Assembly (NCBI GenBank): GCA_965116435.1 | Contig: OZ220686.1 | Coordinates: 2,036,054-2,100,053 of the forward strand | Length of the DNA stretch: 64,000 nt | Direction of reading: 5' to 3' | From: Rhodothermales bacterium | Lineage (GTDB): Bacteria; Bacteroidota; Rhodothermia; Rhodothermales; VXPQ01 | Part shown: positions 15,242 to 53,853 of the stretch, piece by piece | Position numbering within the stretch: the stretch's first letter is position 1 | How the letters are laid out: the number at the start of each line of letters is the position of its first letter | The notes under the pieces: model-generated | The model's database searches: none | Seen by the model: only the letters and a program-made list of their open reading frames with translations | Told to the model about the DNA's origin: nothing | Made by a program: the position numbers and the translations under genes

Positions 15242-17656
15242 ATGCCGGACAAGATACCGTATAGCCTCCCGCGCATCGTGGAAGCGCCTGCGCCCTGCCT
15301 GTTCCTTTTTATTGCGTTTATCGCGCTGATTGCAAGCGGATGCGGCGCGCAGCCTCCTTCCGACCCGACCTGGGTAGGCCGCGAAACGTGCGCCGGATGC
15401 CATGCGGAGGCGGCGCTGGCCTGGAGCGGATCGGATCACGACCGGGCCATGGAAGAGGCTTCGCCGGAAACCGTGCTGGGGGATTTCGACGATGCGGCGT
15501 TCGAGCGTTGCGGCGTCGAAACGCGCTTTTTTCGGGAAGAAGATCGTTTTTTCATCCGGGCGCAGGGGGCCGACGGGGCCATGCAAACCTGGCCGGTCGC
15601 CTACACGTTTGGCTACGAACCCCTCCAGCAATATCTCATTCCGACCGAAAAAGGGCGCTTGCAGGCGTTTACGGTCGCTTGGGATACGGAGGGCGCACGG
15701 TGGTTTTCCTTGTCGGAAGACGAATGCATCGATCCCCCGGACTGGCTGCACTGGACCGGCGGCGGGATGAACTGGAATTATATGTGCGCGGATTGCCATT
15801 CCACCAACCTGCAGCGCCGTTTCAATCTGGCCGAAGGCGCGTACGAGACGGTTTTCGAGGAAATCGATGTGAGTTGCGAAACGTGCCACGGTCCGGGGTC
15901 GGCTCACGTGGACAGGGCCCGGTCCGGGACGTACGATGCGGCCCAATCCGGCCTCGCGGCTCCCTTTGCGACGCCGCACGAACAGGTGGAAACCTGTGCG
16001 CCGTGCCATTCTCGCCGCCGCGTCGCGTACCCGAATCATATCGCAGGCAATGCGTTTCTGGATCATTACAATCCCGATCTCCTGGAGGAGGGGCTGTATT
16101 TCGCCGACGGACAGATACGCGACGAGGTGTATGTGTACGGCTCGTTCGTGCAAAGCCGCATGTATGCAGAGGGCGTGGCGTGCACGGATTGCCACGATCC
16201 ACATACGACCCGGGTGAAGTTCGAAGGGAATGCGTTGTGCGGACAATGCCATGACGTGGCCGTCTACGATACGTTCGAGCACCTCCGGCATCCCGAGGGC
16301 GCGGAAGGTTCGCAATGCGTGGATTGCCATATGCCGGAGCGGACGTATATGGGGGTGGACCCCCGGCGGGATCACGGGTTCAAAATTCCCCGGCCCGATC
16401 TGTCCGACCGGACCGGCGCTCCGAACGCATGCGAGGGGTGTCATGCGGATCGTTCTGCGGAATGGGCCGCCGACCGCATCGCGGATTGGCATGGGCCGGA
16501 CCGCCCGCCTTCGTTCGCGGCGGCGTTCGCCGGGGGGCGGGCGGGCGATCCCGAGGCAGAGCCGGCCTTGGTTCGCCTGACGGAAGACCCTTCCGCCCCG
16601 GACATCGTGCGGGCGACGGCCTTGACCTTGCTGGACGGGTATGCTACGGTGCGGGCTTCGGAAGCGGCGAGGCGGGCGCTGGGGGATGAGGCGGCGCTCG
16701 TGCGGGCGACGGCCGTGCAACGTTTCGGGGCAGGGGAGGGCGCCGATCGCTCGGCGATCCCGCACCTGGAGTCTCTGCTGACCGATCCCGTGCGGCTGGT
16801 GCGGATGGAAGCGGCTCGCGTGCTCGCCCACATGGCGCCGGAGCGTTATGTTCGGGGGGATGCGGACGAAACGGCGGTCGCCTGGCGCCATGCCTTGCAG
16901 GAATATCGGGACGGACAGCACGCCCTGAACGATCAGGCGGCCTCGCATCTGAATCTGGCCATTCTGCACGAGCAGCTTGGGCAGCCGGACTCGGCGGCGG
17001 CGGCCTACCGCACGGCGATCCGCGTGGATTCCCTCTTCGTTCCGGCCTACCTGAACCTGGCCATGCTGCTCAACCGTTTGCGGGATGCGGGTGTGGCGGA
17101 GGGCGTTGGGGCGGGTATGGCGAGCGGAGTTGGCGGCGCGCGGGGTTCGGGCGGTGCGGGGGGGCCGGGCGGCTTCGGTGAGGGGGGTTCGGGTGGTGCG
17201 GGCGGGGCCGGTGATGCGGGTGGCGGGGTTGGCGGCCCGGAGGCGCTGGCCGCCGAAGCGGAGATGGCGTTGCAGGCGGCGGTGCGCCTGGAGCCAGACG
17301 CCGCCGAGGCGCATTACGCGCTGGGGCTGTTCCTGGGGGAAACGCCGGAGGGCCTTGAAGAGGCGGCGGGCCATCTCGAACAGGCGGCGCTGCTGGACGC
17401 CTCCAACGCCCGCATGCAATACAACGCCGGGCTGGCCTACCAGCAACTGGGCCACGCCGAACAGGCAGAACGGTTTTTGTCCCGCGCGCTGGCCATTTCC
17501 CCGAACCATGCGGACTACCTGAACGCCCTAAGCATTTTCCATGCCCAGCAAGAGGCATGGGACCAGGCCCTCGAATACACGGACCGCCTCCTTGCACAAT
17601 ACCCGGACCACCCTGACTTGCTTGAGCGGAGGGTTTGGATTTTGGGGAGGAGGTGA
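15242..17656 (+). CDS. Multiheme (8 CxxCH) c-type cytochrome with HEAT and TPR repeats
   Basis: CAGCH, CADCH, CETCH, CAPCH, CTDCH, CGQCH, CVDCH, CEGCH. Lipobox-like ASGC. Gly-rich insert within the TPR region. Start uncertain. Confidence 0.88.
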   Translation: MPDKIPYSLPRIVEAPAPCLFLFIAFIALIASGCGAQPPSDPTWVGRETCAGCHAEAALAWSGSDHDRAMEEASPETVLGDFDDAAFERCGVETRFFREEDRFFIRAQGADGAMQTWPVAYTFGYEPLQQYLIPTEKGRLQAFTVAWDTEGARWFSLSEDECIDPPDWLHWTGGGMNWNYMCADCHSTNLQRRFNLAEGAYETVFEEIDVSCETCHGPGSAHVDRARSGTYDAAQSGLAAPFATPHEQVETCAPCHSRRRVAYPNHIAGNAFLDHYNPDLLEEGLYFADGQIRDEVYVYGSFVQSRMYAEGVACTDCHDPHTTRVKFEGNALCGQCHDVAVYDTFEHLRHPEGAEGSQCVDCHMPERTYMGVDPRRDHGFKIPRPDLSDRTGAPNACEGCHADRSAEWAADRIADWHGPDRPPSFAAAFAGGRAGDPEAEPALVRLTEDPSAPDIVRATALTLLDGYATVRASEAARRALGDEAALVRATAVQRFGAGEGADRSAIPHLESLLTDPVRLVRMEAARVLAHMAPERYVRGDADETAVAWRHALQEYRDGQHALNDQAASHLNLAILHEQLGQPDSAAAAYRTAIRVDSLFVPAYLNLAMLLNRLRDAGVAEGVGAGMASGVGGARGSGGAGGPGGFGEGGSGGAGGAGDAGGGVGGPEALAAEAEMALQAAVRLEPDAAEAHYALGLFLGETPEGLEEAAGHLEQAALLDASNARMQYNAGLAYQQLGHAEQAERFLSRALAISPNHADYLNALSIFHAQQEAWDQALEYTDRLLAQYPDHPDLLERRVWILGRR

Positions 17657-17680
17657 TTTTTTCGGGAATGATATCCAATA

Positions 17681-19110
17681 CTACACAAAGTGAATTTCTT
17701 TCTGATTTTCCACCTTACCAGTGTAAGGATCACGCATTATGGGCAAGTTCGGTATACGATTGTCAAAGTATTCCTCAATAGACCACAAATTCATTCGATC
17801 AAATGGACGGCCTTGTATCCGTATCTCATTCATTCTGGCGGCTTCCGCGTGTGCGGAATTTGAAGTAATTTTATCAAGCGTAATAAAACAACTTACTGCT
17901 GCTTTTTCACGATCCGCAACACTGTTAAAATCGCGTAGATAACTCAAATTAAACTTGCCACCTTTTACCTGTGATAATGCTATTTTAGAGGGATATTTAT
18001 CTGGTTTCATTGCCAATGTTGCTCGCCCGTCTATACCGCCATCACCAACCTTTACCTTATTCGGAGCAAACCCAGACAAACGAGTTACAGCCCAAGCTTC
18101 AAAATGAAACGGTTCGTCCTTTGCCAATCTACGGGCAGAATCGAAATCAGCGGGAATACCTTTTGTTGGTATATTCTGATTGCGAAGGCGTTTCTCTTTA
18201 ACGAGATCAATGGCTATCGGAGATATATCAACGCCAACCCATTGACGTTTAAGAAGCTGAGCTGCTTCTACAGTTGTACCACAGCCGCAGAATGGATCGA
18301 GGACAACATCTCCTTCGTTGCTTGATGCTTCTATAATTCGTTGAAGTATAGACAGGGGCTTCTGTGTAGGATAACCAAGGCGTTCCTTCGCCTGTGAGTT
18401 CAACTGGGTAAACTTGGGATCACGCAGGTAAGACCATACATCATCAGGCATTATTCCTTCGTCAGGATAGAATATTTTTCCTGCTCCATTTACATGACAT
18501 TTTCGACCATCCGCATCTACTTTGTTATATCGGCGTTCCTTCATTCGACGCGGAACCCTAACCTGTACTCCCACATAATCTTCGGATCGGGAATAAAAGA
18601 ATAATGTATCGTGTTTTCTTCGATAATCCTTCTTTCCACTATTACCCATGTGATAATGCCATATAATCTCATTACGAAAATTTTTTGATCCAAATATACT
18701 ATCCATAACAACCTTGAGATAATGACTTGCTGTCGGATCGCAATGTAAATAAATCGAACCTGTAGGTTTCAGTAGACGATGCATCTGCTCCAACCGCTCC
18801 GCCATATAGGTCAGGTACGCCATCATACCTGACTGCCCTAACACTTGGTACAAACCTTGTATGGCTTTATGGGCAGGACGAGCGACCGCATCGTCAAACT
18901 CACTGTACCGCCTTTCCGCATCCCCATCCCAGTACCATGTATCGTCGAATGCTCGGTATTGAGCCCCCCCCCCGCATCTTGTCCGTACAAGATATTATAG
19001 TTAGCCTTCGAGTTGAAAGGTGGGTCAAGATATATCAGGTCTACAACGTTGGCATTCCATTTACGCATCCAGTCAAGGCAGTCACCGTAATACAGGGTTC
19101 CAGTATCCAT
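17681..19110 (-). pseudogene. N6/N4 DNA methyltransferase fused to an Mrr-like endonuclease domain, frameshifted at a G10 tract
   Basis: First frame: LYYGDCL...DLIYLDPPFNS. Second frame: AQYRAFDDTWYW...GYPTQKP...LDPFCGCGTT...DGGIDG...QVKGG. The break falls at C10 on the + strand, 18964-18973. Confidence 0.9.
18964..18973 (-). repeat. G10 homopolymer tract within the methyltransferase CDS
   Basis: gag-cccccccccc-gcatc on the + strand. Confidence 0.95.
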
Positions 19111-19704
19111 TTTATCTTCGAAGGTTGGTTGTCGGGATGCCCACAGAAGTGGGCTTATAACATACAATATACGAAACACCAAACTAGAAAGCAAATCCGT
19201 ATCAATAATTTTTTTGTGTTTATACATCTTTACTCTTGATGTCATCAATTCTTTATATACTACATATATTTTAAAAATAACTAAATAATCGCAAGAAAAT
19301 GACTATAAAAATACTAAGTAAATAATTTCTAAATTAGTGTTAAGAATTGATTGCAAAATGGGCGAAGAAAAAGGATACGGTACGATGTGTATGAGAAAGT
19401 TATAAAGAATCAGGAGACAAAAGAAAAAGTGTCTACTCCGAAGAATTGAGGAGGGCTATCTGCGTTGCTCCGAAGAAAAAGCGGGAATCGCCGAGAGTAT
19501 AAATCGGGCTGTGTAATATTAGATATAAGTTCTTTGTTATGGGGATTACATACCAAAGAGACCCCAAAATCCTTGCCTACGGTTGCTCCAAATCAGCATA
19601 ATAATCGGCGTTACGCGTACCCGCTGCGCCCACACCGGACCTCCGCTACATCGCCGCTATGGCGCGCTTGCTTATCTCGCTGAGCAGGCCCCCGGGTCCG
19701 GCCC

Positions 19705-20928
19705 CTACTCCATCCCCTCCCCCTCGCTCTCCCGCATTTCTTCCACCTCGACGGTCACGCTCCATTCGGGATGCGTAGCGGGCGCGGTTACCGCGTTGAG
19801 TACCTCGAAAACCAGTTGGTGCCGGAACCCCCGCTCACCCGTTTTTACCTCCACCCAGGTCACGGCGTGCGGATCGAGGACGAGCAGGTCCGTCGCATCG
19901 GCAAAGGTGTATTCCGAACGGTTGCGCAGCATAAACGGCGCATCGGACACGTTCTCGATGGCCACATGGAGCACTGAATTGTCCCTGCCGTACTCGGCGG
20001 CATGGATCGAAAGCGATGCGTCGATGAGCGGCAGTACATGCTCCGGCCTGCCGACCAGAATGTCCTTGTACCACGCCACGGTGCGCCGCATCCGGAGCGC
20101 TTCGGCGATGGCCTCGACAGAACGTTCCGTCGCAAAAACCAGCGTGGACGACCGATGACCGCCGCCAGGCACGTCGAATGTCCAGTCTATCAGCCCGTGA
20201 ATGTCCGACGTGCCGAGAATGGTCAGGTTATGGTCCAGGGCGATCTGGAGCGACTCCTCCGAATACCATTGCTCGTTGACCACTTCAATGCCGTGCAACA
20301 GCCCCTCGTCGATATACTGGCGATGCAGGTCGGTAAGTTCGGCGATCGCGTCCGGTTTTTGGGCCGGGTAACTTGGATGATTCCAGAATACGAACGCCCC
20401 CTGCCGTTCGGCTTCCCGAAGCGCATCGCCGGGGTCCTCCGTCAGCACGGGGTTCACATCCTCCAGAAAGATGGCGTTCATATGGCCCGGCGGCATGGCC
20501 CGCGTAATCTCTGCGCCCCGCAACACGAGGAGCGGCTTGTCCTCCTCGCCCGCCTCTTCTTCCTCCATCTGTTCGCCGTCCGCGTTTTCCTGTGCATTCT
20601 CCACCATTCTTTCGACCACCCGCTCCGCCAGGTCGTAGCTCCGGTTGCGGTCCGGGTGGGGAATGTCTGCGCTATGCGGCTGGTATTCAAGATGATCCGT
20701 AATCGCCAGGCAATCCAGTCCGTCGCGCAGCGCTTCTTCCACCCGGATGTTGGGCCAGACGCTCCCGTCCGAAAACACCGTGTGCGTGTGAAAATCGCAA
20801 ACCAACGTATGGTATCCCGGCACATCCGGAAACTCGATGAGGCGGTGCGCGGCGGCGTCCTCCGCATGCTGCGCCGCCGCAGCCGGAACGATCAGGAAAA
20901 ACAGGAACAGACAGAAAAAGCGTCGCAT
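19705..20928 (-). CDS. PHP-domain phosphoesterase, secreted
   Basis: Signal peptide MRRFFCLF, DFHTHTVFSDG, AITDH, FWNHP, GTSDIHG. Confidence 0.88.
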   Translation of the reverse strand: MRRFFCLFLFFLIVPAAAAQHAEDAAAHRLIEFPDVPGYHTLVCDFHTHTVFSDGSVWPNIRVEEALRDGLDCLAITDHLEYQPHSADIPHPDRNRSYDLAERVVERMVENAQENADGEQMEEEEAGEEDKPLLVLRGAEITRAMPPGHMNAIFLEDVNPVLTEDPGDALREAERQGAFVFWNHPSYPAQKPDAIAELTDLHRQYIDEGLLHGIEVVNEQWYSEESLQIALDHNLTILGTSDIHGLIDWTFDVPGGGHRSSTLVFATERSVEAIAEALRMRRTVAWYKDILVGRPEHVLPLIDASLSIHAAEYGRDNSVLHVAIENVSDAPFMLRNRSEYTFADATDLLVLDPHAVTWVEVKTGERGFRHQLVFEVLNAVTAPATHPEWSVTVEVEEMRESEGEGME

Positions 20929-21038
20929 GGGAATAGGGTGCAGGGTTAGGAGATTATGTAATGATGGCGGGTCCTTGCGGGTTTCGGAATGCAACGAAGC
21001 GCTGCCCGCCGGGTCGGCCCCGTTTTGTTGAAATGTAT

Positions 21039-21090
21039 GGATGTTCTGATTAAGGATACTCTGATTAACTTCGCAAAGATCAGAGTATCT
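21039..21090. repeat. 37-bp palindromic unit (21054-21090) preceded by a 15-bp partial copy
   Basis: GGATGTTCTGATTAA followed by GGATACTCTGAT-TAACTTCGCAAAG-ATCAGAGTATCT. Abuts the DUF3224 stop codon. Confidence 0.8.
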
Positions 21091-21504
21091 TTATTCTGCG
21101 TCTTCCGCGAATGTATAACGCAGGGTGAGCATATGTACGCCGTTCGCCGTACGGCTTATTTCCATTTCGCCCCGAAGCCCGGCCAATTCGCCCGTACCCG
21201 ATCCGGGCACCACATTCCCGAACGAATGCGGCGGCATGTCCGGTCCCATAATGCCTCCGTGCTGCAATACGAACGTGCCGGATCGTCCCGCAAGCACGCC
21301 CGTCACCCGCTCCGAAACGACATAGCCCGCGCCGGCTTTCGGATCGCTCAGCCCGCAAAAAAGTCCTTCGCCTGCGCTTTCCCCGGCGAGCTCTCCCTGA
21401 AATTTCTTCTGGATGGCGACGCGAACGAGCGCGGGACCTTCCGCCGGCTCGTCGCCGGGCGAGGGTTCCCATTTCGTGACGTCAAATGTACATGTGGCTT
21501 CCAT
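21091..21504 (-). CDS. DUF3224 family protein
   Basis: FDVTKWE, KKFQGELAGES, GRSGTFVLQH, VVPGSGTGELAGLRG. Confidence 0.88.
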   Translation of the reverse strand: MEATCTFDVTKWEPSPGDEPAEGPALVRVAIQKKFQGELAGESAGEGLFCGLSDPKAGAGYVVSERVTGVLAGRSGTFVLQHGGIMGPDMPPHSFGNVVPGSGTGELAGLRGEMEISRTANGVHMLTLRYTFAEDAE

Positions 21505-21815: not shown

Positions 21816-21866
21816 GATACAACGCCGGAACGATTCCCGTCCCGGCGTCGCCGCATTCCCGGAAAG

Positions 21867-21939
21867 TGGGCCCGGTAGGGTTCGAACCTACGACCAATGG
21901 ATTATGAGTCCACTGCTCTAACCACTGAGCTACGGGCCC
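21867..21939 (-). tRNA. tRNA with CAT anticodon, probably tRNA-Ile2 (lysidine)
   Basis: GGGCCCGTAGCTCAGTGGTTAGAGCAGTGGA-CT-CAT-AA-TCCATTGGTCGTAGGTTCGAACCCTACCGGGCCCA. Resembles Ile2 rather than initiator Met. Confidence 0.9.
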
Positions 21940-51275: not shown

Positions 51276-51435
51276 CAAACGAAGCCTTTCGCCCGGCGGG
51301 GTCGCGCGGGGCCGCCTTGCTTGCGGCAGGCCTTTCGGGCGCCGTCCAGAGCCGGCGAAAACTCGCGTGGCCCTACGGAAAAGCCCGGGCCGCATGCATT
51401 AACCGGTACAGACTATGAACCTGATCCTGAACATC

Positions 51436-52797
51436 ATGAAGCACAGCGTACGCCTGCCGCTCCTCGCGGCCATGCTCGCGGCGGCGTTTTTCCTGCCTGC
51501 GGGCGTCCTCGGACAAGCGCCGGACGCTCGTCCGAATTTTGTCGTCTTGTTTGCGGACGATCTCGGCTACGGCGATCTGGGCCGATACGGGAATCCGACC
51601 ATTCGCACGCCGCAGCTGGACCGCATGGCGGACGAAGGCGTCCGGCTGACTTCTTTTTACGTAACCGCGGCGGTCTGTACGCCGTCGCGAGCCGGCTTGC
51701 TTACGGGCCGCTATCCCATCCGCCATCTCCCGCACAATCTGGGGCCGGAGTCGCAAAACGGCCTGCCTCTGGACGAAACCCTGATCGGGGAACCGCTCCA
51801 GGAGGACGGCTACCGGACCATGATGATCGGGAAATGGCACCTCGGGCACGCCGAGGACGCGTACATGCCCGTCTCGCGGGGTTTCGACGGGTATTACGGC
51901 TTGCTCTACAGCAACGACATGATTCGCCCGTGGGTGCAGACCGACGTACCGCTGTATATGTTCAGGGACCTGGAGCCGATCCGCCAGCCGCTGAACCAGG
52001 ACACGCTGACCGTGACGTACACGAAAGAAGCCGTTCGTTTCATTGAAGAGGCGGGATCGGAGCCGTTCTTCCTGTATCTCGCGTACGGCATGCCCCATGT
52101 GCCCGTCTACCCGGCGCCGCATCGGGACGGGCGGTCCCGCAAGGGGCGGTACGGCGACGTGATCGAAACCATCGACTGGAGCGTCGGGGAGATTCTGGCT
52201 GCGCTCGAGGCTCGCGGACTGGACGAGCGGACGCTGGTGATCTTTACGAGCGACAACGGGCCGTGGCAGGCCATGCCGCCGCGCATGTTCCAGACCGACA
52301 TGCTGCCGCTGCACGAACCTGTCCAGCCGTGGCACAGCGGATCGGCGGGGCCTTTGCGCGGCTACAAGGGGACGACCTTCGAGGGCGGTTTTCGGGTGCC
52401 GTTCATTGCGCGCTGGCCGGGGCAGATTCCCGCAGGGCGCGTGTCCGCCGACATGCTGTCCTCGCTGGATGTGTTTCCGACCCTGATGGAGGCGGCGGGC
52501 GTTGCGGCGCCGGACGGCCTGGACGGAACCAGCGCGCTTTCGTTCCTGACGACGCGGGCCGTCTCGTCCCCTCGCAACGCATTCTATTATTATCTGGGGG
52601 ACCGGATCGAAGCGGTTCGGGAAGGCCCCTGGAAATTACGGATTGCGCCCGGGTCCGAGGGAGCGCAGGGAGAACCTGCCTTGTACCATCTGGACGAGGA
52701 CCCCGAGGAAAAATACGATCGGGCGGAGATGTACCCGGACCTGGCGGCGCGCTTGCAGGCGGCCATGGAGGCGTTCGATGCGGAGGCGAGGCGGTGA
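51436..52797 (+). CDS. Arylsulfatase A-like sulfatase, secreted
   Basis: PNFVVLFADDLGYGD, CTPSRAGLLTGR, GKWHLG, KGTTFEGG. Alternative start at 51415. Confidence 0.92.
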   Translation: MKHSVRLPLLAAMLAAAFFLPAGVLGQAPDARPNFVVLFADDLGYGDLGRYGNPTIRTPQLDRMADEGVRLTSFYVTAAVCTPSRAGLLTGRYPIRHLPHNLGPESQNGLPLDETLIGEPLQEDGYRTMMIGKWHLGHAEDAYMPVSRGFDGYYGLLYSNDMIRPWVQTDVPLYMFRDLEPIRQPLNQDTLTVTYTKEAVRFIEEAGSEPFFLYLAYGMPHVPVYPAPHRDGRSRKGRYGDVIETIDWSVGEILAALEARGLDERTLVIFTSDNGPWQAMPPRMFQTDMLPLHEPVQPWHSGSAGPLRGYKGTTFEGGFRVPFIARWPGQIPAGRVSADMLSSLDVFPTLMEAAGVAAPDGLDGTSALSFLTTRAVSSPRNAFYYYLGDRIEAVREGPWKLRIAPGSEGAQGEPALYHLDEDPEEKYDRAEMYPDLAARLQAAMEAFDAEARR

Positions 52798-52903
52798 GTT
52801 TGGGAAGGAAGGGGGGGGGGCTGAGTCGCTCTACGCTACTATCGTCCCCGGGGCGAGAGCAACGATAACCTGTTGCTTTGGTACTACAACACAGAATGTC
52901 CGT

Positions 52904-52941: not shown

Positions 52942-53020
52942 ATCATATGAAAACCGCCGCCGGAAGGCGGCATGACCCGCCGCAAGTTTCACCTACCTGT
53001 CCAAATTCGGACCATTTCTT

Positions 53021-53683
53021 ATGGCTTTGCACAAGGAAGACCAGTTCAACCTGAAGAACAAATACACGCTTTATATGCAGGCGGGCCTGATCGTCACACT
53101 GGGCATTCTTATCGTTGCTTTCCGCGCCGACTGGTCCAACAAGAGCGATTTCGAGATCGTGCTTCCAGAACAGGAGCAGATCACCATGGAGGAAATTCAG
53201 CAAACGGAGCAAATCGAACAACCCCCGCCGCCGCCGAAGCCGCCCGTCCCCATAGAGGTGCCGAACGATGAAATCCTTGAAGACGACATCCTCGACCTGG
53301 ATGCTTCGCTTGACCTGAATGACGCGCCGGCTATTCTGCCTCCTCCTCCGCCGGTGGAAGAAAAGGAAGAAGAGCCTGAGATATTCGTAATCGTGGAACA
53401 GATGCCCGAGTTGATTGGAGGTTATGCCTCTATAATCAGCGAAGTGAAATATCCTGATATTGCCCGTAGAGCTGGCGTGGAAGGCCGCGTAACCGTGGAA
53501 TTCGTCGTCAACGAACAGGGAAACGTACAGGATGTGGCGGTAAAACCGGGTTATGGCATTGGTGCTGGCTGCGACGAGGAAGCCATCCGCGTTGTGAGCC
53601 AGGCAACGTTTACGCCCGGCAAGCAGCGGGGCAAAGCGGTCAAGGTACGTATGCGAATGCCGATCAACTTCACGTTGAGATAA
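53021..53683 (+). CDS. tonB: Energy transducer TonB
   Basis: N-terminal TM, Pro-rich linker, VEQMPELIGG, YPDIARRAGVEGRV, PGKQRGKAV. Confidence 0.94.
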   Translation: MALHKEDQFNLKNKYTLYMQAGLIVTLGILIVAFRADWSNKSDFEIVLPEQEQITMEEIQQTEQIEQPPPPPKPPVPIEVPNDEILEDDILDLDASLDLNDAPAILPPPPPVEEKEEEPEIFVIVEQMPELIGGYASIISEVKYPDIARRAGVEGRVTVEFVVNEQGNVQDVAVKPGYGIGAGCDEEAIRVVSQATFTPGKQRGKAVKVRMRMPINFTLR

Positions 53684-53853
53684 ACGGCTGAGCCTCCATG
53701 CCCATAGAAAGATTCGTACGGGTATCGTTTTTACGTGCTTGTCCAGCGTACGCACACCTTGGAGGCGTTGTGACAGGCTGGCACGCAGCAAGCGGGTGAT
53801 TTCTCCCGGGGATGGTTCCCGAGTAATGGCCTTCGCCATCCTTACCCCTCACG

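Follow-up and report, generated by a model that had tools for sequence, protein, structure and literature searches.

The window analysed here is a 64,000-nucleotide (nt) stretch of DNA (G000:C1:2036054-2100053) from an uncultured Rhodothermales genus known solely through metagenome-assembled genomes (MAGs); the host genome is a single contig of 3,069,934 bp with 60.3% guanine + cytosine (GC). Placement in Rhodothermales follows from the ATP synthase beta subunit, with identities of 96-98% to a cluster of MAG proteins (one from Bacteroidetes bacterium SB0662_bin_6), 88% to a Rhodothermales bacterium and 82% to Rhodocaloribacter, and the many type IX secretion sorting domains of the genome fit it. 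Coordinates are positions within the window unless a contig name precedes them. The gene under study encodes a predicted DNA methylase with a nuclease-like C-terminus and is found in two pieces, in different frames, on either side of a run of ten G residues (Table 1). The 5' piece reads MDTGTLYYGDCL...DPPF...YGQDAGGG by translation. The open reading frame (ORF) from its ATG reads MDTGTLYYGDCLDWMRKWNANVVDLIYLDPPFNSKANYNILYGQDAGGG, and the final four codons, GCG GGG GGG GGG, hold the G10 tract, which corresponds to codons 46-49 of about 476. In the frame set by ten G's a product of 90 amino acids (aa) is made, with the stop at 18838-18840. The 3' piece reads AQYRAFDDTWYW...TQKP...DPFCGCG...GDGGIDG...QVK; its -1 frame opens at the last G of the run, where the two frames overlap by exactly one base. 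The gain of one G (G11) or the loss of two (G8) fuses both frames into one protein of 475-476 aa, colinear with its homologues. Tract length alone sets the frame, and no second lesion was seen.

The comparison with homologous proteins showed how the two pieces fit together. The 5' piece aligned without gaps to residues 1-49 of the homologue P0006 with 41 of 49 positions identical (84%), and the 3' piece spans 97-100% of the top homologues, which are 460-550 aa long. At the tract site the homologues read ..Q(D/E)xGGGAQ(Y/F)RAFDDTWYW, and because of this GGGAQ(Y/F) element G11 is the length that matches the family spacing. A preliminary description, made from the sequence alone, had a DPPF-bearing gene leaving its frame at ten G's, a continuation intact in another frame with a single lesion, and one protein restored by G8 or G11; the anatomy given above confirmed each of these points, the run containing exactly ten G's and the continuation 427 open codons.

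Table 1. Features of the methylase-Mrr locus and of its surroundings in the 64,000-nt window.
Feature	Position	Strand	Basis or remark
5' coding piece (P0002), 49 codons, MDTG...DPPF...YGQDAGGG	18964-19110	minus	translation; ATG at 19110
DPPF, presumed motif IV (codons 29-32 of 5' piece)	19015-19026	minus	read from translation
G10 homopolymer, frameshift site (C10 on + strand)	18964-18973	minus	exactly ten G's
3' coding piece (P0001), 427 codons + stop, open in -1 frame	17681-18964	minus	stop TAG 17681-17683
Beta-class N6/N4 DNA methyltransferase domain, P0001 residues 45-256	18197-18832	minus	PF01555
Motif I DPFCGCGT, P0001 residues 223-230	18275-18298	minus	translation
Mrr-like PD-(D/E)xK nuclease domain, P0001 residues 294-383	17816-18085	minus	PF04471
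GDGGIDG	around 18029-18043	minus	within nuclease domain
QVK	17963-17971	minus	within nuclease domain
AT-rich non-coding leader of island	19111-19551	minus	sequence reading
Perfect hairpin GCCCAC-TTCT-GTGGGC, 29 nt upstream of methylase start codon	19139-19154	minus	sequence reading
AT-rich, strain-variable island holding only the methylase-Mrr gene	17664-19551	.	GC profile and run contigs
12-mer GGGAATGATATC, IS1595-type terminal-repeat-like, faces inward at left island boundary	17664-17675	+	
12-mer GGGGATTACATA, repeat-like, right boundary, same strand so not inverted	19541-19552	+	
Left flank gene, multihaem cytochrome-TPR protein, core chromosome	15242-17656	+	Pfam; syntenic in 4/10 congener loci examined
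Right flank gene, DUF5001-domain protein, core chromosome	19705-20994	minus	Pfam; present in 10/11 congeners
tRNA-Met gene, 2.3 kb from island, not adjacent	21866-21939	minus	
Second G10 in window, intergenic	52811-52820		between convergent ORFs 51415-52797 (+) and 52943-53839 (minus)

The product of the joined frames is predicted, from profile matches and a structural model, to be a beta-class N6-adenine methyltransferase with a C-terminal Mrr-like PD-(D/E)xK nuclease. The N6_N4_Mtase profile (PF01555) scored 152.3 bits (cut-off 26.7; E 2.5e-44) and Mrr_cat (PF04471) 24.9 bits (cut-off 21; E 2.3e-5), the latter passing by a narrow margin; many homologues likewise carry a precomputed PF04471 match. 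Both Pfam assignments agree with the methyltransferase-Mrr fusion first read from the motifs. In beta-class enzymes motif IV, (D/S)PP(F/Y), lies N-terminal to motif I, FxGxG, and D in place of S marks adenine-N6 as the target. The DPPF of the 5' piece, which we take to be the catalytic motif IV, precedes FxGxG here, and this beta-class order holds only with the two frames joined. The Asp residue in DPPF, together with the best solved sequence relatives (M.MboIIA, M.RsrI, CcrM and M.BceJIV, 1e-15 to 1e-18; family profile, 4e-29), points to N6-adenine methylation.

An AlphaFold model was calculated for the unaltered 427-aa piece from a 13-sequence alignment. Its mean predicted local distance difference test (pLDDT) score was 69.5, with values mostly of 84-94 in the C-terminal domain (one 10-residue block at 67) and only moderate ones in the methyltransferase domain. 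In a fold search against about 48,000 PDB representatives, model residues 2-272 matched CcrM (Z 10.1), M.MboIIA (Z 10.1), M.BceJIV (Z 9.7) and M.RsrI (Z 9.3). Residues 260-416 matched MspJI (Z 8.9), the Type ISP enzyme LlaBIII (Z 8.6; root-mean-square deviation 2.7 over 114 residues), AspBHI (Z 8.3), AF1548 (Z 8.0) and FokI (Z 7.3); values near 8 are moderate and exceed background to a moderate degree only, and the matches were consistently nucleases. The residues E289, D308, D312, Q332 and K334 were invariant in all 13 aligned family members, and E...D...QxK is the catalytic residue pattern of Mrr, the motif being named D...QxK. A sequence search of the PDB with the nuclease domain alone gave no match, and the whole-family profile matched methylases only. 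PADLOC recognised the methylase part only (MTase_II at 8e-54, the MTase_II and MTase_III models lying over residues 45-272); among the best 25 of 54 matched PADLOC families all were methylase models, none reaching the nuclease part, and REase_MTase_IIG was not among them.

The family is large and widely distributed. At least 8000 homologues were found, all scored candidates passing E<=1e-3, and 595 of 600 pattern matches in GTDB genomes were confirmed as members, with hosts in Poribacteria, Gemmatimonadota, Rhodothermales, Chloroflexota, Proteobacteria, Acidobacteriota and others. A single contig of 3,950,614 bp carries genes for at least seven members (including P0014, P0028, P0036, P0054, P0076 and P0109), 50-57% identical to the query, which fits spread by a mobile element. 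The full-text literature searched contained no characterised family member and no report of an N6_N4_Mtase-Mrr_cat fusion.

The host genome is rich in long homopolymers of the same kind. There are 57 G/C runs of at least 10, with lengths of 10-14, and the length distribution is bimodal: 132 runs of length 7 are followed by 11 of length 8 and 5 of length 9, and then by 25, 10, 11, 7 and 4 runs of lengths 10, 11, 12, 13 and 14. Extrapolated from a log-linear fit to lengths 3-7, about 34, 7 and 1.9 runs would be expected at lengths 8, 9 and >=10, respectively, and each of three 5th-order Markov simulations produced 3-5 runs of at least 10. Long runs are hence about 30-fold enriched and lengths 8-9 depleted. 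Of 62 runs of at least 9, 46 are situated inside an ORF of at least 250 aa or yield such an ORF on a one-base change.

The genes carrying the tracts encode mostly surface proteins and modification enzymes. About 20 surface proteins were counted in all, among them four giant Ig/PKD proteins and a 16-member family with the tract within the first 100 codons in 15 of 16 members; the three members of this family that were scanned all contained Calx-beta and a C-terminal sorting domain of the type IX secretion system (T9SS). Four Type ISP enzymes (one with the full domain set, one with weak matches) and seven beta-class methylases, including the methylase-Mrr gene, also carry tracts. Two methylase-HNH fusions have C10 and C9, two further beta-class methylases C14, and two Type III Mod genes C12 and G13 (PADLOC 1e-136 and 6e-191). 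Some tract genes are in frame, among them the Type III Mod gene at G000:C1:2278012-2279556, and some out of frame, the corrections needed being both +1 and -1, which excludes a systematic under-call. This gene repertoire and the geometry of the tracts are those of classic contingency-locus organisms. One orthologous Type ISP gene has a 5' tract of different length in three species, with G13 in the host genome, G12 in G001 and G11 in G007.

As separate observations, the two methylase-HNH paralogues (G000:C1:26210-27415 and 3068094-3069314) are separated by about 28 kb when counted across the contig ends, and each goes out of frame at a C10 or C9 run about 115 nt upstream of DPPF; a remnant of an IS1595 transposase is found at G000:C1:28019-28141.

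The abundance of tracts is a property of part of the genus. Overlapping G10 words numbered 95-298 in six of its 12 species and 0-18 in the other six, and in other genera of the family that were searched they were near zero in six of seven, the seventh (G017) giving 10 overlapping matches. Exact-G10 counts in five other hosts of the methylase-Mrr family were 2-7 per genome and uninformative.

Tracts were found also within relatives of the gene. Five of 80 family loci from other genomes contain G>=9 inside the gene. In L020 a G10 occupies the same codon position as in the window (..SGEGGG|DAQYRAF..) and the gene is out of frame. In L025 (G11), L031 (G9) and L065 (G9) the run lies about 115 codons after DPPF, before FRNEIVW, and these genes are out of frame; L028 has G11 near this second site and is in frame. 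The five tract loci fall together with the window gene and its congener relatives into a single subclade of 14 rows (Shimodaira-Hasegawa-like approximate likelihood-ratio test, SH-aLRT, 96), and none of the 59 rows outside it has a tract. The tree was a quick maximum likelihood tree of 73 rows, 14 of 81 loci having been dropped by a failure of motif-based cutting or for a piece of less than 250 aa. Tract status refers to loci with DNA; P0004, P0006, P0007 and P0008 were compared as proteins only. The distribution reads as at least two tract origins at two sites, and since the kin are not independent no statistic was attached to it. The preliminary description had proposed a comparison of orthologues, and this gave a mixed picture: L020 carries a tract at the same site and four relatives carry one at a second site, and L009, L021 and L024 have none.

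The gene lies in an island of deviating composition, the GC content being 33-48% over about 17660-19600 compared with 60-74% in the flanks, which confirms the AT-richness noted at the outset and the foreign character of the gene. The island was examined also in contigs of four sequencing runs (X1-X4), which represent two samples of one study and are possibly the assembly's own data. In all four it forms a separate contig of 1949 nt covering 17633-19581, and in the same runs the flanks also join other AT-rich sequence after 17666 and before 19552, at similar depth and with an A>C difference at 17630. Because the flanks continue into different sequence at comparable depth, a second co-occurring strain with other cargo in the slot is indicated. 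The slot between the flank genes, or beside the DUF5001 gene, has differing content across ten congeners (L131-L140) and is a hot spot. An AAA_14-DUF4143 ATPase was found in two scanned loci, with similar ORFs in three more; G004 has a Dam-like methylase and two unknown ORFs, G002 an IS3-type transposase, and the others other content.

The flank and boundary sequences of the island are unique in the genome, on which ground the idea that the boundaries are repeats found elsewhere in it was rejected. Also rejected as element ends was an 11-nt inverted repeat (17637-17647/19562-19572): both arms lie in flanks common to the second strain, the left one inside the cytochrome coding sequence, and about 0.8 such pairs are expected by chance (estimate). 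A sigma-70-type promoter scan of 17500-19750 gave 5 sites against 4.6 expected and was uninformative, Bacteroidota-type promoters being outside the model; a terminator scan of the same interval found none. Elsewhere in the genus a repeat of ~37 nt with a look like repetitive extragenic palindromic (REP) elements occurs in many copies, at dozens of places, over G000, G003, G008 and G010, for example at L142:193-232 (G000:C1:585692-585731).

The relatives suggest how such a gene may have travelled. In seven of 80 loci an IS1595-family transposase (PF12762, 1e-37 to 1e-39) lies directly upstream in the same orientation, and all five tract-bearing loci are among these seven. In six of the seven (L020, L024, L025, L028, L031 and L065) terminal inverted repeats beginning GGGAATTATA.. 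bound a unit of 2.65-3.8 kb composed of the transposase and the methylase-Mrr gene; the repeat of L024 begins GGGGCTTATAG. The unit at L025:1761-4497 has a perfect 28-nt repeat pair and a small basic ORF after the methylase-Mrr gene. No other neighbour recurred in more than three of the 80 loci, the clusters with 8-58 loci being overlapping frames of the family gene itself. In the window, the 12-mer at the left boundary of the island, GGGAATGATATC, matches 11 of 12 positions of the L028 terminal repeat GGGAATTATATC. The orientation of GGGGATTACATA at the right boundary misfits an intact element end; both repeat-like 12-mers sit exactly at the independently defined boundaries. From these similarities, the island is probably a remnant of an IS1595-type element.

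A different region of the same genome, G000:C1:1996645-2000065, contains an IS1595-like transposase (1996718-1997641) adjoining a beta-class methylase (1998936-1999715), with a 13-nt inverted repeat at the outer ends, and may be another cargo-bearing element. The literature searched held no paper on an IS1595 element with a methylase passenger.

We consider it most probable, at about 0.6, that the gene is a foreign single-chain methylase-nuclease, carried in by an insertion sequence, whose expression is toggled by slipped-strand changes in the G run of a glycine linker, which is OFF in the majority of cells and which represents one of about 57 such switches. The gene entered a variable chromosomal slot by horizontal transfer, probably as the passenger of an IS1595-type element that later lost its transposase. 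The N-terminal beta-class N6-adenine methyltransferase would provide sequence recognition and the C-terminal Mrr/FokI-like domain cleavage, with the G run encoding the three glycines that link motif IV to the helix after it. Slipped-strand mispairing at the run during replication would add or remove a G, so that the tract length changes within the population and the locus, one of about 57 poly-G/C contingency loci and currently OFF, alternates between the full enzyme of 475-476 aa (G11 or G8) and the 90-aa stub (G10, the majority state). When ON, the enzyme would be active and methylate adenine, and the nuclease would restrict unmodified DNA. The reversible switch of the preliminary description has thereby gained strong circumstantial support from the bimodal run lengths, the restriction-modification and surface genes concerned, the tracts of relatives and the length difference between species; judged by the criteria of that description, it was neither disproved nor established.

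Several findings weigh against this interpretation, and some of them favour a plain pseudogene, that is, a decaying methylase-nuclease brought by an insertion sequence, in which one G was lost at a mutation-prone run and the loss became fixed and unselected, the frame being otherwise intact as the event was recent. No transposase or remnant of one is present in the window at 16000-21500, and the island has only one correctly oriented terminal-repeat-like end, so a decaying relic is possible. No heterogeneity of tract length was observed in the contigs of the four runs, which uniformly contained G10. The closest relative at the DNA level, the congener locus L009 (65-70% identical, its protein identical to P0005), encodes the same Gly-Gly-Gly as GGGGGCGGC, without a long run and with the gene intact. 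Four of the five other tract-bearing relatives are out of frame, and with the window gene five of six members of the subclade are out of frame in their assemblies, for which the chance is about 0.35; such a pattern also fits hot-spot decay or homopolymer miscalls in long-read MAGs. Finally, MutS_I and MutL_C were found in all 12 genomes of the genus, from which a repair-deficient background is absent, and mismatch-repair loss as a cause of tract instability was rejected for this reason.

A pseudogene is nevertheless an unlikely explanation. Its 427 codons are open in a gene of 40-48% GC without a second lesion, and it was synonymous changes that turned a GGG-GGC-GGC-type ancestor-like state into the tract. 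The runs of the host are over-represented about 30-fold and lie in the classic contingency gene classes, and a run of G10/G11 reverts mechanically at a high rate, whatever its history. The uniformity of G10 neither shows nor excludes variation because contigs suppress minority variants and drop minority lengths, and the cover and depth of contigs say nothing on minority alleles. When metagenomes were scanned for the two tract flanks spaced by 8-13 bases, no match resulted, and a metagenome protein scan returned only two loci, 36% identical.

A homopolymer error in the assembly or sequencing, by which the true tract would be G11 and the gene intact and ON, is improbable. Runs of at least 10 are the hardest bases to call, many of the related assemblies are long-read MAGs, and the five of six out-of-frame genes in the subclade could be read in the same way. 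However, the de novo contigs of four runs from two samples all read G10 with no differences and no gaps over the tract at word depths of 25-98, which argues against a simple assembly slip, although the runs may not be independent of the assembly; the genome-wide corrections of both signs and the many tract genes that are in frame also speak against it. Leaky expression without mutation, in which RNA polymerase would slip on the G run or ribosomes would shift to -1 there, so that the gene would be constitutively low rather than OFF, is very improbable: the frames overlap by one base where the run ends, as a -1 shift requires, and slippage on long homopolymers is established, mostly for A/T runs, but a slippery heptamer or stimulatory structure was not noticed, no search aimed at them having been made, and the same logic would have to cover the +1-type OFF genes elsewhere in the genome.

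The toggled, insertion-sequence-borne enzyme can be placed in a broader picture, which we offer tentatively and hold to be doubtful in its entirety. According to it, an uncultured Rhodothermales genus would run a Campylobacter-style phasome of about 57 poly-G/C switches, comprising Type III, Type ISP, methylase-HNH and methylase-Mrr enzymes and T9SS surface proteins, with mismatch repair intact. Within it, a subclade of insertion-sequence cargo genes might have evolved its own hypermutable tract at least twice, at two sites, and would constitute a mobile, self-silencing, single-chain restriction-modification module, free of cost when OFF and protecting or addicting its host when ON.

The comparison with characterised systems showed several partial likenesses. 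Type IIG enzymes have an N-terminal PD-(D/E)xK nuclease followed by a gamma-class methylase and a target-recognition domain; in the window gene the beta-class methylase comes first and the Mrr-like nuclease last, and it does not belong to Type IIG by this measure. The closest known system is nevertheless Cj0031 of Campylobacter jejuni NCTC11168, reported as a Type IIG restriction-modification enzyme with phase variation at a poly-G run (PMC4889913), which embodies the same concept with another domain architecture and in another lineage. Both have the methylase and the nuclease in one polypeptide, an intragenic poly-G run as the translational switch, a proposed one in the window gene, and a place among many poly-G loci. 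The host here differs in being an uncultured member of the Rhodothermales with MutS and MutL, not an epsilonproteobacterial pathogen, and the switching and activity of the present enzyme are putative.

The Type III mod phasevarions known from Haemophilus, Neisseria, Helicobacter and Moraxella depend on a simple repeat within the ORF of a beta-class N6-adenine methyltransferase, which it turns ON and OFF; Mod acts together with Res as a second subunit, tetra- and pentanucleotide repeats are common there, and control of a regulon has been demonstrated. The window gene likewise has a beta-class methylase with a repeat in the ORF, and its host possesses two Type III Mod genes with G13 and C12. Unlike Mod with its Res partner, the methylase-Mrr enzyme would act as a single chain. 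The solitary or Type II beta-class N6-adenine methyltransferases M.MboIIA, M.RsrI, CcrM and M.BceJIV are the best matches in sequence and fold and share the order DPPF then FxGxG, but none of them has a C-terminal nuclease domain. MspJI, AspBHI, LlaBIII, FokI and the Mrr family share the fold of the C-terminal 150 residues (Z 7.3-8.9) and the D...QxK of Mrr; in MspJI, AspBHI, LlaBIII and FokI, in contrast, the partner of the non-specific cleavage domain is a modification reader, a translocase or a Type IIS binding domain and not a beta-class methylase. Insertion sequences of the IS1595 family carry passenger genes. Six of the 80 relatives' loci resemble such elements in being a transposase and a family gene bounded by terminal inverted repeats, whereas the window copy is without a transposase and has at most one recognisable end.

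To our knowledge, work on the repeat-driven phase variation of restriction-modification genes has been confined almost entirely to host-adapted pathogens. The preliminary description had known of no such switch in this lineage, and the full-text literature searched, including PMC11410982 and PMC2831843, holds no account of poly-G phase variation in Rhodothermales or sponge symbionts. The signature of such a system, namely bimodal tract lengths, defence and surface genes with tracts at their 5' ends and differences of length between species, was found in a marine-type Rhodothermales genus of a non-pathogen lineage, and the IS1595-type link offers a concrete route for the spread of the methylase-Mrr family. 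If the switching is true, homopolymer 'frameshifts' in MAGs of this kind should not be discarded as pseudogenes or polished away, and heterogeneity of phage defence and of the methylome at the level of the population would count as a normal strategy among environmental or symbiotic bacteria.

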